Shown here: positions 1 to 7,847 of the stretch, piece after piece
How the letters are laid out: each line of letters opens with the position of its first letter
Numbering within the stretch: the first letter of the stretch is position 1
Virus record (IMG/VR): IMGVR_UViG_2711768002_000001
Strand: one strand, 5' to 3'
DNA: 7,847 nucleotides
Origin: a virus
Lineage: Duplodnaviria > Heunggongvirae > Uroviricota > Caudoviricetes
Position numbers and translations under genes: made by a program
Notes under the pieces: model-generated
What the model was told of the DNA's origin: nothing
Seen by the model: only the letters and a program-made list of their open reading frames with translations
The model's database searches: none

Positions 1-98
1 AGGGACAGCTGATAGAAACAGAAGCCACTGGAGCACCTCAAAAACACCATCATACACTAAATCAGTAAGTTGGCAGCATCACCTCATTCGTCTGTTCC

Positions 99-1832: not shown

Positions 1833-2615
1833 TTATGCTGCCCTTTTCATTGCGAATGGAACGCGAACAAACACGATCTCTTTATAGCAGCGGCAGTTTG
1901 GCAGCTCGCCCGCGTGGCCGGTCATGCCGTCCAAAGTTGGAGGTGAATCCCAGCGGACGAATTTACCTTTCATGTGATCGTGGGAATCTCGGACATCGCC
2001 ATCATCGGCTGTACGCCAAATATAACCATCCGAGCCAATAGCTATCGCTCGGGCCATATCCAGCGCGCCCGTTGCTCTTCCCAGTTCCGTTCGGGCAATC
2101 AGATCGGCCCTAGACTTAGCAACATCGCCGGTAGATGCAATCTCTTTAGCAAACTGCTCCGCCCGACCACCGGTGACAACAGCCTCTATCGCTTTGTTCT
2201 GGATGTCGTACACCCTGTCTGCGGCCTCGAGAGGCAGAGATTTGATGTACTTGACCTGTTCGGCGATGATGGATTGCATCACCTGGCCCACAGGAGCGCT
2301 TTCCACAAGATTGCGGAGCTCGCGACTGATGTTCTTGCTGTGTTGCCGCCAAACTTTCTCGTTCTGCCGGGTTAGGTCCGCAGTAAAGTTTTCCGCGACC
2401 TTTGTCGCCCAGGGGGTGATGATTTCACTGTAACGCTCCAGCGCCGCAATAATTTCCGTGATACTGTCATTTGAACCATCGTAGCGACCATTTACGATGT
2501 CTCCGACCGCCCTCGCTATCCTGCGTAGGCTGGTTCGATACCGGATTTCCGCCTGACGGCTCCTGCGGTTCGTCATCAGGTTCGCCGATGCCGGGCGGCG
2601 CTTCATCTTCGGCAT
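1833..2615 (-). CDS. Phage head morphogenesis protein, Mu gpF / SPP1 gp7-like (260 aa)
   Basis: Intact ORF with ATG at 2615..2613 and a GAGGA Shine-Dalgarno 8 nt upstream; TAA at 1835..1833. It contains an ADLIARTELGRA-type motif and a basic N-terminus, and lies immediately downstream of the portal as in Mu/SPP1-type head modules. The 5' 149 nt overlap the portal 3' end in another frame. Confidence 0.75.
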   Translation of the reverse strand: MPKMKRRPASANLMTNRRSRQAEIRYRTSLRRIARAVGDIVNGRYDGSNDSITEIIAALERYSEIITPWATKVAENFTADLTRQNEKVWRQHSKNISRELRNLVESAPVGQVMQSIIAEQVKYIKSLPLEAADRVYDIQNKAIEAVVTGGRAEQFAKEIASTGDVAKSRADLIARTELGRATGALDMARAIAIGSDGYIWRTADDGDVRDSHDHMKGKFVRWDSPPTLDGMTGHAGELPNCRCYKEIVFVRVPFAMKRAA

Positions 2616-3549
2616 TCTCGATGTCCTCGTCGGTAATGGATGCCCCGATGCCGGTTACGTCAGAATTTTCTCGCAAATCAGTCATAGCGGCTTTCAGTGT
2701 CATCAGACCATCACCCAGCGCCGTACTGATTGCGTTGGTGGTGTTTAACGCCACCGTTGAGCGATCGACATCAGACATTTGCCAGAGCGGGTTAAACTCA
2801 AACGTGAAATCGTCCGGCAGCGGCTTGCCAAGTTCCGAACGATGCATGATGTCCAGTATCCGCCGCACCGGAAGACGTAAACGCCTCTCCTGCAACGAAC
2901 TGATGCGATCGTAATAGTTGGCAAGGTCTGCATCACCGGTAGAAAATCCTTTCGGGGACTGTCCGAACAACCGCACCAGTGGGATACCAACAGCGCCACT
3001 AATCTGTTCTACAAACTGCGAAAGGATGTCATCCAGACCACTGAAGCTGTACTGATGGGTTTCAAACTTATCCCGCGAGTCCATGAGCGTCATGCCTTCA
3101 TTACTCTGGAACTGTCGAATCAGGTCGATATTCTTCAGCAACGCTTCATACGCAGGACCACCAAGTGCGATAAGCTCGCGTAGCTTCTCCACGCTGTAGG
3201 TACGCAAATGCGCCTTGTAGACCAGCTGCGCCGCGCCGACAGTAGCGCTGTCGAACGCGGTAAGACGATCCCAGATACGCTCTACAACCGACATTCCCCA
3301 TTCGTTCTCGGTCATCTTCTGCTGAAATGGCAACGTGACGCCATCAAAGCGAATCAGGCGACTGTGATGAATGCGCCAGGCAGGAATTCCCGTTGCTGTG
3401 GTCACCACATCGTAAAACTCAGGTTTACCCAGGTCCGGCCCCATATCTTTAATGCGGCGGGTCAGTGCCGGGTCGACCATCCAGCGGTCGAGCGGGAGAA
3501 TCCCCTTAAACTTGCCCTTACCGATGGTTTCGGGTCGCAGCGGGGTCAT
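2467..3549 (-). CDS. Phage portal protein, intact 3' segment (360 codons) downstream of the second in-frame TAG
   Basis: ORF from ATG at 3549..3547 (GAGGGG 9 nt upstream) to TGA at 2469..2467. It has an acidic C-terminal tail (DEDIENAEDEAPPGIGEPDDEPQEP) typical of portals and sits directly after terL. This ATG is in frame with the upstream interrupted portal sequence. Confidence 0.8.
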   Translation of the reverse strand: MTPLRPETIGKGKFKGILPLDRWMVDPALTRRIKDMGPDLGKPEFYDVVTTATGIPAWRIHHSRLIRFDGVTLPFQQKMTENEWGMSVVERIWDRLTAFDSATVGAAQLVYKAHLRTYSVEKLRELIALGGPAYEALLKNIDLIRQFQSNEGMTLMDSRDKFETHQYSFSGLDDILSQFVEQISGAVGIPLVRLFGQSPKGFSTGDADLANYYDRISSLQERRLRLPVRRILDIMHRSELGKPLPDDFTFEFNPLWQMSDVDRSTVALNTTNAISTALGDGLMTLKAAMTDLRENSDVTGIGASITDEDIENAEDEAPPGIGEPDDEPQEPSGGNPVSNQPTQDSEGGRRHRKWSLRWFK

Positions 3550-3933
3550 TGGTGCCTACCCCTCAATCATGATGAAACCCACCGCGCCGCCGTAGAGGCG
3601 CGACCATTTCAGCACGTCATTCAGCGCATCCCAGATTTGCAACTCATCCAGTTGTGATTCGAGAATGCCACGATCTTTTGCATCAATTTCCGAAGTGATG
3701 CGAATGCCTTTGCGGGTCATATCATCCGGGATAGCATCGACTGCTTCGCCGATGATCTAGGATGAACGATAGGACCATTCCACCAGCATGCGGTTACGAC
3801 TGGTGAAATTAGCCCGGTAGGTGGATGCTGAGTGCTGGTTAGGTGTCTGCATCCCTACGCGGGCAATAAAATTCTCATAACCATCAGCTGTGGCCTGCAC
3901 AGTTCGCCGCAGGGCTTGTTTGTTTCGTGCCAT
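2467..3933 (-). pseudogene. Full-length portal reading frame (about 488 codons) interrupted by two in-frame TAG codons
   Basis: Hand translation of the minus strand from ATG 3933..3931 gives MARNKQALRRTVQATADGYENFIARVGMQTPNQHSASTYRANFTSRNRMLVEWSYRSS, then TAG (3759..3757), then IIGEAVDAIPDDMTRKGIRITSEIDAKDRGILESQLDELQIWDALNDVLKWSRLYGGAVGFIMIEG, then TAG (3558..3556), then APMTPLRPET... All are in one frame (3759-3558 = 201 = 67x3). The ATG overlaps the terL TGA (TGATG) and has a GGGGAGA Shine-Dalgarno. Confidence 0.7.
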
Positions 3934-5336
3934 CAGGCCTGTCTCCCCAGCTGTTCCCAGATATCCAGCGATGTATCGATTGGCGCGAAGGCCATAATGA
4001 ATGCATCAGCAACGTTTGGTGACGGTATCTCGCGTTTTGCGAGGTCTTTTTTACTTTCGACCATCACACGTCCGTTACGGTCGAAATCACGATGAGGTGT
4101 TGTCAGTTCCAGTTTCAGCTTTTCAAGCAACGGACAACGAGAATCTATGCTGATCAGCTCATCCACAGGATACTGTTCTCCGTTGTTAATGGCGTTAAAC
4201 GTATTTCTGAAACGGTCAGCCACCAGCCACCATGCCTGAGCCTTAAGATTTGCGAAAAAGTCTTTGTTGGGGATGCCGTTGTACTCGTCATCTGGCTCAT
4301 GCACACCAGCACCGGCGTTAAACCTCTGGTAATTCACACGTCGCGCGTATGCGTTCTCGCTCTTCCGGTCAGCGTTAATTTCAGAGAATTTAGCACCGGC
4401 AGACGCACCAACACCGATAGAGTCGTAAACAATATCTGCTTCACGCTCCAGCGCCGCCTGATAAGTACGCTGGCAGCTCTTCAGTAATTCATCTTCTTTG
4501 GCCTTCCATTCGTCGGCCCAGAAAACAACGGATCCGTGACGGTAAACGTTAGCGCACTTATCTGTACCACTGTCAGCCACGTCAAAGCCAATACGCTTTC
4601 TTCCACTGGGTTCGAAATTTAACGTTTTGTGCGCATCCACTGCGGCTTCTATCCAAGACAGTTTGATGATTGCCGCATCATCATCAGACTCCGGAACGCC
4701 CTCATACACATGTTTAAAACCATCCGGATCACGGCGTCGCGCCGCGTCGATAACCTTAAGCATGGTGTCAGACAGAAACGGATTTTCGTCATAGTTAATT
4801 TTGCGGATGAGAGTGCCTTCGGGCGGATCAACAACGAAGTTGCGCCAGACGAAATCAGTAACAAGTCCGGGGTTGAATATGAACCAGCATTCCGAACCCT
4901 CTTTACGGATCGTTGGCTCCAGAATTTTCCACTGGTATTCCGTCAGTGCGTGGGCTTCTTCCAGCCACAACACATCGATCCCCTCCAGTGACTTAATTTC
5001 TTCGATGTTGCGCCATAATCCATAAAAAACAAATTCCGAGCCAGTAACCCGGTTAATGATTTTGTTGTTCAGAATACGGAAACGGTGCCGCAGACCAAAC
5101 CTGTCTATCTGAATTTTGAGCAGGGTATACACCGACTCTTCGATTTTATTCTGGATCTGACGGGCACAACAAAAACGCAGGGTGTATTTATTCGACAGAA
5201 ATATGGCAATGCCAGCGGCATCCCATGATTTTGACGATGACCGACCACCATAAAGCACTTTGTTACGTGCCCGCATAGTCCAGAAACTACGTAAAGCCGG
5301 ATTCAGCGTCGGTTTGGATGTCAGAGTAGAAGTCAT
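3933..5336 (-). CDS. Terminase large subunit (ATPase/nuclease); start uncertain
   Basis: Long minus-strand ORF with TGA at 3935..3933. Walker A-like VLYGGRSSSKS and Walker B-like IDVLWLEEAH are present. The six-frame ORF extends to a TTG at 5444, but that would overlap terS by 157 nt. In-frame ATGs at 5375, 5363, 5360, 5354 and 5336 are candidate starts. I chose 5336 (about 50-nt overlap with terS) as a compromise. Confidence 0.85.
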   Translation of the reverse strand: MTSTLTSKPTLNPALRSFWTMRARNKVLYGGRSSSKSWDAAGIAIFLSNKYTLRFCCARQIQNKIEESVYTLLKIQIDRFGLRHRFRILNNKIINRVTGSEFVFYGLWRNIEEIKSLEGIDVLWLEEAHALTEYQWKILEPTIRKEGSECWFIFNPGLVTDFVWRNFVVDPPEGTLIRKINYDENPFLSDTMLKVIDAARRRDPDGFKHVYEGVPESDDDAAIIKLSWIEAAVDAHKTLNFEPSGRKRIGFDVADSGTDKCANVYRHGSVVFWADEWKAKEDELLKSCQRTYQAALEREADIVYDSIGVGASAGAKFSEINADRKSENAYARRVNYQRFNAGAGVHEPDDEYNGIPNKDFFANLKAQAWWLVADRFRNTFNAINNGEQYPVDELISIDSRCPLLEKLKLELTTPHRDFDRNGRVMVESKKDLAKREIPSPNVADAFIMAFAPIDTSLDIWEQLGRQA

Positions 5337-6051
5337 TGAGGTCACGCTCTCCATTGCCATCATCAATACCTGCATCACGGCGAAGACGATCAGCCTCCAG
5401 AGACACCTTATCAGTGGCGGCCTTGCGGTAGGCTGTATCAGCAAATATTTTTCCTACCGTCGCAAGCGTGCCAACGATGGACTCAATACGAACTGTATTG
5501 CGCATCATTGCTTTCTCGGCGGCGCTGATATTTTCAATCAGCATCTTCCTTTCCTGGTCCCCATTAGCATCTTCCAGCGACACCAACCACCGACCAATAT
5601 TCTCTGCAGCGACAAGGTTGTTAGCACGAAGGCGAAATAATTCGTCCTCGAGCGTCAACGCTTTAGCGTCCTCTATCACCTCATCTTTGAGCAGAAGGCG
5701 ACGGGCATAACCACCGTGTTTTAATGCCTGCTGGTTACCGGGTTGGAATGGGTTAGTCGGGGGATCGGTACGCATTCCGCGTATCGGTTTCGTATCCGGT
5801 GTAGATTCTGTTTTTAGTTGCGTACTTTTTTGTGTAAGGCCAGTAATGGCAGGCTTTCTGCTGGTACGCACTTTCCTTTTTTGCGTACCATTTTTGCAAA
5901 CCTGCGTACCGCCACTGCGTGCCCAACCAAGCTTTTTGGCCCTCTTCCTGATAGCCCCTTCTGTAACGCCGTATTTCTCGCCTATATCACGGAGGCTAAG
6001 GACTCCGGCCCGGTATGCCGATTCGATGGCCTCCCAGTCCGGTTTTGCCAT
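5287..6051 (-). CDS. Terminase small subunit (254 aa) with N-terminal helix-turn-helix
   Basis: ATG at 6051..6049 with an AGGAAG Shine-Dalgarno about 8 nt upstream; TAG at 5289..5287. The N-terminus (LSLRDIGEKYGVTEGAIRKRAKKLGW) is HTH-like. An NPFQPGNQQALKHGGY motif resembles conserved small-terminase motifs. It lies immediately upstream of terL. Confidence 0.8.
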   Translation of the reverse strand: MAKPDWEAIESAYRAGVLSLRDIGEKYGVTEGAIRKRAKKLGWARSGGTQVCKNGTQKRKVRTSRKPAITGLTQKSTQLKTESTPDTKPIRGMRTDPPTNPFQPGNQQALKHGGYARRLLLKDEVIEDAKALTLEDELFRLRANNLVAAENIGRWLVSLEDANGDQERKMLIENISAAEKAMMRNTVRIESIVGTLATVGKIFADTAYRKAATDKVSLEADRLRRDAGIDDGNGERDLNDFYSDIQTDAESGFT

Positions 6052-6195: not shown

Positions 6196-6248
6196 AAGTC
6201 GTATCACGGTTAAATAGCAAAGAAAAATTCACAGAAGGAAAGACATTG

Positions 6249-6758
6249 ATGGAGTGGATAAATGCTTTGATGAACTATTTTGTACTTCATCCATATCGCC
6301 TATGGGGGCTTCTTTTTATAATAGCGTTCACAAAATCCACTTTACTCATTTCGGCGATATTGCCACCAGCATCAATTATGATGGCCACTGTAATTACAGT
6401 CAGCAAGACGACTCTTTCACCATGGGAAGCTGGAATCACGGTCATGAGTGGCGCATGGTGCGGTACTATCGTTAATTACCATCTTGGTATAATAATTGGG
6501 CATATCCCTCAACTTGCATGTATAATATCAAGCCGTTCCAATACAATAGAACGGGTTCGCCTTCAGTTGCAAAATAACTCTGTGTCAATACTTTTCACTT
6601 CGCGCTTTATCGCCGTGCTGCGTTATATTGCTCCTTTGGTGGCAGGAATGTTGCAACTTCATCCAGTGAAAGTGTATACAGTGAGTCTGATTTCAGCTGC
6701 TAGCTGGTCAGCACTTTATGTTGGTAGTTTTAGCTTCGTGTTGCCTTTTTTTAGCTAA
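6249..6758 (+). CDS. Small polytopic inner-membrane protein, divergent DedA/YqaA (VTT-domain)-like; moron
   Basis: ATG at 6249 (the ORF track starts at a TTG at 6246) with a GAAGGAAAG Shine-Dalgarno; TAA at 6756..6758. It is the only plus-strand gene and is visibly AT-rich compared with the flanks. There are 4-5 hydrophobic segments. SRFIAVLRYIAPLVAGMLQL resembles the DedA GRFIPxxRxxxPxxAG motif, and NYHLGIIIG resembles the Y-x-LGR motif, but the conserved acidic/basic residues are not obvious. Confidence 0.55.
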   Translation: MEWINALMNYFVLHPYRLWGLLFIIAFTKSTLLISAILPPASIMMATVITVSKTTLSPWEAGITVMSGAWCGTIVNYHLGIIIGHIPQLACIISSRSNTIERVRLQLQNNSVSILFTSRFIAVLRYIAPLVAGMLQLHPVKVYTVSLISAASWSALYVGSFSFVLPFFS

Positions 6759-6846: not shown

Positions 6847-7245
6847 CTACCCCCCAAGGCATTGGATCCTGATGTACTCCTGAAGCATTCTCAATGCTGT
6901 CTGGTCGCTGATGATTCCGTCCCGGATACCGAGAACGTTTCGTCCAGCAACTGGAGAGAGTTCGACGGTGGCATCATTGCCCATGCCGGAGGCGCTGGAG
7001 GTTTCGGCTGAGGATGGCACAGGGCATTTTCCTTTGACGAGCACCCGACCACCATTATCAAGCTTGCGCCGAAGAGCATCATTTTCAGCTTTCGCATCAG
7101 CTAACTCCAGCTTCAGTTCTCTTGCGTTTTTGTCGCGCTGCTCTTTGTAGGTAATGGCGTTATCACGGTAATGATTAACAGCCCATGACAGGCGGACGAT
7201 GATGCAGATAACCAGAGCGGAGATAATCGCGGTGACTCTGCTCAT
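6847..7245 (-). CDS. Rz: Rz-like i-spanin (inner-membrane spanin subunit)
   Basis: ATG at 7245..7243 overlaps the endolysin TGA as ATGA; TAG at 6849..6847. It has an N-terminal TM segment ([18 protein letters not shown]) followed by a charged, coiled-coil-like region ([29 protein letters not shown]). The ORF track's GTG at 7257 is probably an over-extension. Confidence 0.75.
6891..7097 (-). CDS. Rz1: Rz1-like o-spanin (outer-membrane lipoprotein), fully embedded in Rz in another frame
   Basis: ATG at 7097..7095. It has a signal peptide with a lipobox (LIMVVGC followed by SSK) and a proline-rich mature part ([17 protein letters not shown]). It lies entirely inside the Rz coding region, as in lambda Rz/Rz1. 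Confidence 0.7.
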
Positions 7246-7739
7246 TGCTGCCCCCACAAACAGACTTCACGCTCAATCTCACGACGGGTCATCAGCCCTT
7301 TCCATTGCTTACCGCCAGCATATGTCCAGCGACATAGCTGGTCACATGCGCCTTTGATATAGCCCTGGTTTATTTTGCGAAGAAGCGTCGATGTTCTGAA
7401 ATTGCCAGCGCCCACGTTGTAAACGAACGAGTAAAGAGCGCCGCGCGTTGTTTCCGGTATATCGACTTTGATGTACGGGTTAATTTGTCTGGCGACAGTG
7501 GCAAGGTCTTTATTCAGGAGAGCTTTGCATTCTGCTTCGGTATACGTTTTACCAGGCATGATGTCTTTTCCGGTGTGTCCGTGACATACAGTCCATACAC
7601 CAATGATATCTTTGTATAGTATGTAGCTGACACCTTCCAGACCATCGTTACCACCTGGGCCAGTGATTAACACAGATGCTATAGCAACAGCCCCGCCACC
7701 AATAGCAACTGCAACAGCCTTGCGTAATGATGGCGACAT
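7242..7739 (-). CDS. SAR (signal-anchor-release) endolysin, T4-lysozyme-like muramidase; phage 21 R-like
   Basis: ATG at 7739..7737 with a GAGAGGTGA Shine-Dalgarno; TGA at 7244..7242. The N-terminus has a Gly/Ala-rich weakly hydrophobic SAR segment ([23 protein letters not shown]). This is followed by a catalytic E-x8-D-x5-T arrangement ([16 protein letters not shown]). It is 165 aa and followed by Rz/Rz1. Confidence 0.9.
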
Positions 7740-7793
7740 TATTCACCTCTCGCAGCCTTACTAGACTGGCCCCCTGAATCTCCAGACAACCAG

Positions 7794-7813
7794 TATCACT
7801 TAAATAAGTGATA
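7794..7813. promoter_or_regulatory. 20-bp palindrome TATCACTTA-AA-TAAGTGATA (9-bp perfect arms), operator-like
   Basis: Arms verified as exact reverse complements. The half-site begins TATCAC, as in lambdoid repressor operator half-sites. It lies about 55 bp upstream of the endolysin start in a region with no ORF. Confidence 0.3.
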
Positions 7814-7847
7814 GTCTTAATACTAGTTTTTAGACTAGTCATTGGAG

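Follow-up and report, generated by a model that had tools for sequence, protein, structure and literature searches.

The last 86 bp of the window, by which we mean the whole 7,847-nt stretch of viral DNA analysed here, are the left end of the insertion sequence IS2, which has transposed into the last codons of a class II (phage 21-type) holin gene in a lambdoid prophage remnant; we hold this with a probability of about 0.97. The first-pass annotation, made from the letters alone, had taken the 108 bp upstream of the endolysin gene for a noncoding stretch with an operator-like palindrome and CTAG-rich repeats and had suggested a regulatory site, a recombination junction or a scar left by a displaced holin. 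What appeared to be an operator-like, CTAG-rich spacer within a lysis cassette is a textbook insertion sequence end, and the outcome is in this respect a clean negative. The IS2 element, the type of cassette and the insertion itself were all already known, the insertion being present in public Shigella sonnei reference genomes.

The minus strand of the window reads as a lambdoid late region, in which endolysin, Rz and Rz1 are followed by terminase, portal and head genes. Endolysin, Rz and the embedded Rz1 stand in canonical order and with overlaps, as in the phage 21/434-type cassette composed of the class II pinholin S21, the SAR endolysin R21 and Rz/Rz1, and the endolysin DNA is 94-99.5% identical to genes annotated as rrrD, endolysin or SAR endolysin. 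As had been noticed before, no ORF in the list of open reading frames that could be a holin abuts the endolysin start at 7739: in place of the holin-to-endolysin overlap of phage 21, only the last 22 bp of a holin gene adjoin the endolysin. The description of the spacer as noncoding thus fails for 7740-7761, which is coding in origin and represents the 3' end of the holin gene. The canonical TAATG overlap of stop and start survives in these 22 bp, the last A of the holin stop codon being the A of the endolysin ATG. The same 22 bp carry the Shine-Dalgarno sequence of the endolysin (GAGAGG), so that the remnant still supplies its ribosome-binding site.

In a megablast search of 7200-7847 that covered 50,697 phage records as well as 5,426 complete E. 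coli genomes, relatives matched only up to about position 7761. In these relatives a class II holin directly underlies the match; the last 86 bases match elsewhere. The endolysin has matches in 227 phage records, and among the matches listed none continues past query position 563, corresponding to window position 7762. In a three-way alignment that includes E. coli CFSAN029787 (L001, holin at 2040-2255), whose holin/endolysin junction is intact, the breakpoint falls at 7761/7762, with the window following the intact junction to ...GCAGCCTTAC (7761) and continuing as IS2 from TAGACTGGCCCCC (7762), 22 bp upstream of the endolysin start codon. From 7762 (TAGACTGG...) to 7847 the window is identical at 86 of 86 positions to 3771-3856 of the E. 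coli 042 locus (L002), a match that ends 5 nt before a CDS annotated as 'IS3-like element IS2 family transposase'; the IS2 copy of E. coli 042 is 1331 bp long and flanked by a CTAAA duplication. Searched alone, the 86-bp end was found at 20,770 places in 4,678 of the 5,426 complete E. coli genomes, on chromosomes as well as plasmids and mostly with 95-100% identity. The junction in one contiguous piece was absent from the 5,426 complete E. coli genomes and the phage records, and its exact 32-mer and 21-mer had no match in the species-representative genomes, as is expected if Shigella has no separate representative there.

Table 1. Features at the holin/endolysin breakpoint and in the adjoining IS2 end (window coordinates).
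Feature	Position	Strand	Remarks
Rz	from 7245	-	
Rz1	7097..6891	-	embedded in Rz
Endolysin	7242..7739	-	rrrD-like, phage 21/434-type SAR lysozyme; intact, 165 aa, PF00959 Phage_lysozyme
Cys-rich ORF, 64 aa	7648..7842	-	start antisense in the IS2 leader; runs across the insertion junction and through the endolysin start
Class II (S21-like) holin, 3' remnant	7740..7761	-	..KAARGE and TAA stop
Target-site duplication, one copy	7757..7761		CTTAC on +, GTAAG on -; second copy past the far IS2 end, outside the window
IS2 (IS3 family), first 86 bp	7762..7847	+	ends at the window edge; start codon of orfA expected at 7853
IS2 left inverted repeat (IRL), 42 bp	7762..7803	+	outer cleavage domain 7762-7772; inner transposase-binding domain 7773-7803
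TAGACT	7762..7767	+	IRL tip; position read from the sequence
9-2-9 palindrome	7794..7813		left arm, IRL positions 33-41; right arm, IS2 positions 44-52
Palindrome centre, TTAAATAAGT	7800-7809		IS2 positions 39-48; footprinted segment with the OrfA/InsA site TAAATAA
Extended -10 promoter P_IRL, TGATAGTCT (TGaTAGTCT)	7809..7817	+	transcribes orfA/orfAB rightwards, away from the endolysin; putative hexamer extent
IS2 orfA leader	7818..7847	+	both ACTAGT sites, second TAGACT, Shine-Dalgarno GGAG (7844-7847)

The published IS2 coordinates of the IRL, the OrfA site and TGAT map base for base onto the window (Table 1). The segment 7762-7803 is identical to L002 3771-3812 and, at 41 of 42 positions, to the IRL oligonucleotide printed in PMC3219604; the length of 42 bp and the domain limits of the IRL are those of PMC3299598. 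The single difference from the laboratory IRL lies at IS2 position 32 (CCAGT in the window, CCAAT in the laboratory sequence), and the CCAGT variant is common to many natural IS2 copies, for example that of E. coli 042. The window moreover has the OrfA site, the extended -10 element, the leader and the Shine-Dalgarno sequence of IS2. The palindrome spans the inner end of the IRL, and its left-arm 9-mer also occurs in the right end of IS2. A transposase footprint of the IS2 left end is among PMC3299598's own data; according to that paper, residues 39-42 (TTAA) and 43-48 (ATAAGT) are strongly protected and include the docking site of the OrfA repressor, TAAATAA, and P_IRL begins with the four bases TGAT, residues 48-51. 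In sequence, the OrfA site at 7800-7809 and TGAT at 7809-7812 (IS2 positions 48-51) match these published elements. PMC3219604 likewise describes a weak extended -10 promoter just inside the IRL, as well as a TA-ended IRL tip that becomes the -10 (Pribnow) box of the strong minicircle junction promoter Pjunc on circularisation.

All the motifs listed for the spacer are present. ACTAGT can be read at 7822-7827 and 7834-7839 and TAGACT at 7762-7767 and 7832-7837, and a repeat search recovered TATCACTTA-AA-TAAGTGATA at 7794-7813 as a 9-nt pair with 100% complementarity and a gap of 2 nt. This is the sole perfect 9-nt inverted repeat with a loop of at most 10 nt in the entire 7847-nt window; first-order Markov simulations give an expectation of 0.33 such repeats per 7847 nt and of about 0.005 per 108 nt. 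Over the window as a whole CTAG is rarer than expected, with 6 copies observed versus 16.6 (Markov-1) or 30 (mononucleotide) expected, and 3 of the 6 fall within 7761-7838. One of these, at 7761-7764, is made by the insertion junction, and the remaining two in the spacer are the only CTAGs of the entire 1331-bp IS2.

A palindrome so far above chance for 108 bp, with a half-site TATCAC that we take to resemble the lambda operator half-site, would suit a spacer that is a phage regulatory region, be it a late promoter, a lambdoid repressor operator or a target of Q or another antiterminator. The same sequence, however, is scattered over thousands of sites outside phages, plasmids among them, and is an IS2 end in every case; the palindrome travels with IS2 on chromosomes and plasmids rather than being conserved with a phage context, as a lambdoid operator or late site would be. 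Nor is the spacer ordinary intergenic DNA between a canonical holin and the endolysin, as relatives without IS2 have no spacer at all and their holin stop overlaps the endolysin ATG. A scan of 7600-7847 for sigma-70 consensus promoters and terminators found nothing on either strand and no endolysin-facing promoter, a scan that is blind to an extended -10 element without a -35 and is thus not evidence against P_IRL, and Rfam at a permissive threshold gave no match in 7400-7847. Since the published promoter in addition reads away from the endolysin, we give almost no credence to a phage late promoter, lambdoid operator or antiterminator target at this place. The term operator-like is nevertheless apt in one sense, because the centre of the palindrome corresponds to a published repressor site overlapping a promoter (PMC3299598); judged from the alignment, the repressor would be IS2 OrfA/InsA and the promoter that of the IS2 transposase.

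The likeness to the lambda-type operators OR and OL comprises the palindrome, the outer half-sites TATCAC/GTGATA, a small helix-turn-helix repressor and the overlap with a promoter. In contrast to these operators, the IS2 palindrome is 20 bp long where they have 17 bp, belongs to the end of a transposon and not to an immunity region, is bound by OrfA and transposase and occurs wherever IS2 does. As the OrfA/InsA site overlaps the weak P_IRL, binding would throttle the transcription of orfA/orfAB and with it the synthesis of transposase. The original publications on the OrfA footprint and on the promoter are those of Hu et al. from 1994, Lei and Hu from 1997 and Lewis et al. from 2004; the account followed here is that of PMC3299598, together with its transposase footprint. 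The transposase shares the N-terminal DNA-binding domain of OrfA, and both proteins bind the site at the palindrome centre, according to PMC3299598.

The window itself contains 86 bp of IS2, and it is from other genomes that we know the element to be complete, the duplication to have a second copy and the holin to follow. An exact-sequence look-up of the endolysin yielded ten complete chromosomes (L005-L014), among them HE616528.1 of Shigella sonnei 53G and CP014099 of S. sonnei FDAARGOS_90 (PMC5447701). The segment 7107-7847 is 100% identical in 9 of the 10 chromosomes and 99.9% identical in L011. IS2 is essentially full length at the site in nine of them, six of which were aligned; it occupies 4648-5978 (1331 bp) in L009, L012 and L013 and, with a 1-bp indel, 4649-5978 in L005, with GTAAG on both sides in all four. 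At the identical loci the element encodes a product of about 409 aa with HTH_Tnp_1 and rve domains, and it is 99.3-99.8% identical to the copy in E. coli 042; a complete IS2 measures about 1.33 kb, has a right inverted repeat (IRR) and makes its HTH and DDE (rve) transposase from overlapping orfA and orfB by a programmed -1 frameshift. A 5-bp duplication is expected for IS2 transposition, and both of its copies (GTAAG/CTTAC) were seen in L003, L004, L005, L009, L012 and L013. Two IMG/VR contigs agree with the chromosomes in junction, duplication and holin fusion. In one of these contigs (L003, IMGVR_UViG_2526164617_000009, 2164-4530) the Rz region is only 93.5% identical to the window and the holin N-terminus differs, which points either to this insertion within a prophage that has diverged or recombined, or to a further copy of the prophage.

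These loci also bear on the idea that the breakpoint is a mosaic joint between phages or an assembly chimera at a contig end. Lambdoid phages are mosaic in general, and the window behaves as a short-read contig would, starting 83 bp within IS1 and stopping 86 bp beyond the breakpoint; yet the same junction is found in ten complete chromosomes and two IMG/VR contigs, and the 5-bp direct duplication that flanks the 1331-bp element in the six chromosomes and two contigs aligned is a hallmark of transposition. We therefore consider a mosaic joint or chimera exceedingly improbable, and the recombination junction proposed earlier is a transposition junction with a 5-bp target duplication rather than a phage recombination joint.

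It is less far-fetched, though still quite improbable, that the IS2 of the source genome is truncated or has recombined with another IS2 copy by inversion or deletion, in which case the holin would not be found on its far side. Shigella genomes rearrange often across IS copies, as stated in PMC8072062, the far end of IS2 in L014 is truncated by another IS, and a 72-bp deletion in Rz already sets the source apart from every relative inspected, so that it is none of those genomes. Set against this, 9 of the 10 inspected chromosomes have an essentially full-length IS2 gene at the site, and in the six that were aligned the complete IS2 is followed by the holin.

An IS2 insertion that separates the holin from the endolysin accounts for the arrangement on both sides of the element. 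The uninterrupted homologue in E. coli CFSAN029787, in which the ancestral holin/endolysin arrangement is found, has 71 aa and ends in KRKAARGE, with its TAA overlapping the endolysin ATG. In the loci identical to the window the displaced holin (PF04971) lies immediately beyond IS2 and keeps 66 native residues with both transmembrane segments (MYQMEKISTGIAYGTS...KIREDKRK, beginning MYQMEKISTG). It has lost the last 5 residues, AARGE, and gained 28 residues from the IS2 right end, so that KIREDKRK is followed by WICPYISRHLLSLNPLQARCRRYSRGER; the fusion has 94 residues, or 91 when counted from the Met4 start. This holin is S21-like and has an MxxM dual start, in keeping with the phage 21/434-type cassette; the differences from that cassette are the 1331 bp of IS2 between holin and endolysin, the altered C-terminus of the holin and the absence of 24 residues from the window's Rz. 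The earlier suggestions that the spacer is a scar where the holin was displaced, or that the holin may lie further upstream, were essentially right: comparison with related prophages finds the holin behind a complete IS2, 1331 bp further on in the matching chromosomes, and no extra DNA between holin and endolysin where IS2 is lacking.

The 64-aa Cys-rich ORF that covers the junction exists as described and enters the endolysin out of frame. It qualifies the statement that all three minus-strand frames of the 108 bp hit stops, which is true of two frames, the third being open throughout and constituting this very ORF. The ORF is composed of three unrelated origins, IS2, the holin remnant and the endolysin; it was called by one genome annotation (L012, 5898-6092), where it has no Pfam match. 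We reject it as a real gene and regard it as a chance frame.

The IS2 genes are antisense to phage late transcription, and because P_IRL fires away from the endolysin it should be unable to drive that gene; the outward -35 in the IS2 right end would likewise not point at the endolysin. The ribosome-binding sites of endolysin, Rz and Rz1 are retained, but these genes would be 1.3 kb further from the late promoter, and their expression would require read-through of the 1.3 kb of IS2 and of further insertion sequences upstream. Upstream of the holin, within 1200-4700 of L005-L014, there are transposase genes of the IS3 family (385-389 aa) and the IS110 family (398 aa) in strain-specific combinations. 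An IS3-family element lies between a Q-like antiterminator gene and the holin in 53G and L013, and an IS110-family element is situated upstream of the holin in many S. sonnei strains; in some strains a Q-like gene was not seen in the 6-kb flank. Owing to the distance imposed by IS2 and the further insertion sequences between the Q-like gene and the holin in S. sonnei, the lysis cassette is probably poorly expressed or silent.

The portal gene of the window (2467-3933, minus strand) is split into three ORFs of 360, 54 and 58 aa, a set also annotated in several of the S. sonnei chromosomes, 53G among them, whereas the E. coli relative L023 encodes an intact portal of 488 aa. With its portal gene in three pieces and further insertion sequences present, the prophage is a decaying, defective one, and the analysis flags it as a degraded, IS-riddled remnant of a kind typical of Shigella sonnei. 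The holin::IS2 fusion occurs together with intact endolysin, Rz and Rz1 frames in every S. sonnei chromosome inspected. Rather than reflecting decay, this combination might represent a retained lysis module that has been freed from phage control, although we regard this as doubtful.

Conservation of the IS2 end was followed in IS2 relatives on plasmids of Citrobacter, Enterobacter, Klebsiella and Phytobacter, whose first 240 bp show 82-84% identity. All four relatives in which the left end is intact share the core TATCACT-N6-AGTGATA; the fifth relative, that of Klebsiella oxytoca, is without the IRL and retains only the right arm. Conservation of the palindrome, which had been proposed as a check, thus holds in the IS2 lineage and not in the phage lineage. 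The block AGTGATAGTCTTAATACTAG(T)TTTTAGACTAGTC has zero substitutions in the relatives, its T-run being one T shorter in two of them. Over IS2 positions 33-86 the relatives differ at 2-3 of 54 positions, versus 31-36 of 154 at the start of orfA, where the changes are mostly synonymous (2-4 amino-acid changes in the three relatives with an intact orfA frame). Within the leader itself, IS2 positions 53-86, there are 1-2 differences in 34 positions versus 20-23% at the adjoining coding positions. Given so few differences beside diverged coding positions, the leader region, and with it IS2 positions 33-86 as a whole, is by this sequence comparison under strong constraint as part of the insertion sequence. 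We found no published role for the ACTAGT sites or the leader beyond their position downstream of the -10 element, which leaves the near-invariant leader with its two ACTAGT sites as a mildly curious remainder. That it harbours an undescribed control element of the IS2 group is a tentative and rather unlikely notion; such an element could be a leader structure or an additional binding site, be it for OrfA/transposase or for a host factor.

The other edge of the window also lies in an insertion sequence. Positions 1-83 are an IS1 terminus (reverse complement of GGTGATGCTGCCAACTTACTG...) found at 72,684 places in E. coli genomes, and S. sonnei 53G carries IS1 at the exact spot of window 1-83. 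In 53G this IS1 is located 70 nt past a gene for a 168-aa decoration/cement protein and replaces the major capsid gene that comes next in the E. coli relative L023. The window therefore resembles an entire short-read contig whose two ends each broke within a repeat and retain about 85 bp of insertion sequence, and it would end at 7847 because the assembly broke inside a repeated IS. In agreement with a short-read break, the endolysin sits on contigs of 5-10 kb in 690 of 852 collection blocks. In draft assemblies, the edges of such windows should accordingly be compared with IS termini before any biological meaning is read into them.

Two further observations concern the neighbouring genes. Rz carries a 72-bp in-frame deletion at 7107/7108, 10 nt upstream of the Rz1 start and with GG microhomology at the joint, which removes 24 residues (ANATITDMQQRQRDADALDAKYTK) and preserves the Shine-Dalgarno sequence and start of Rz1. 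None of the ten matching S. sonnei-type chromosomes has the deletion, nor do L001-L003 or any of the 5,426 complete E. coli genomes, in which the best matches to this region consist of two pieces spanning 188 bp, and a search of the protein collection for the shortened Rz protein, in versions of 132 and 136 aa, gave no entry. A gene for a DedA/VTT-domain membrane protein (PF09335, 170 aa) is encoded on the plus strand at 6246-6758, between Rz and the gene for the small terminase, and looks like a moron-like cargo gene in the late region.
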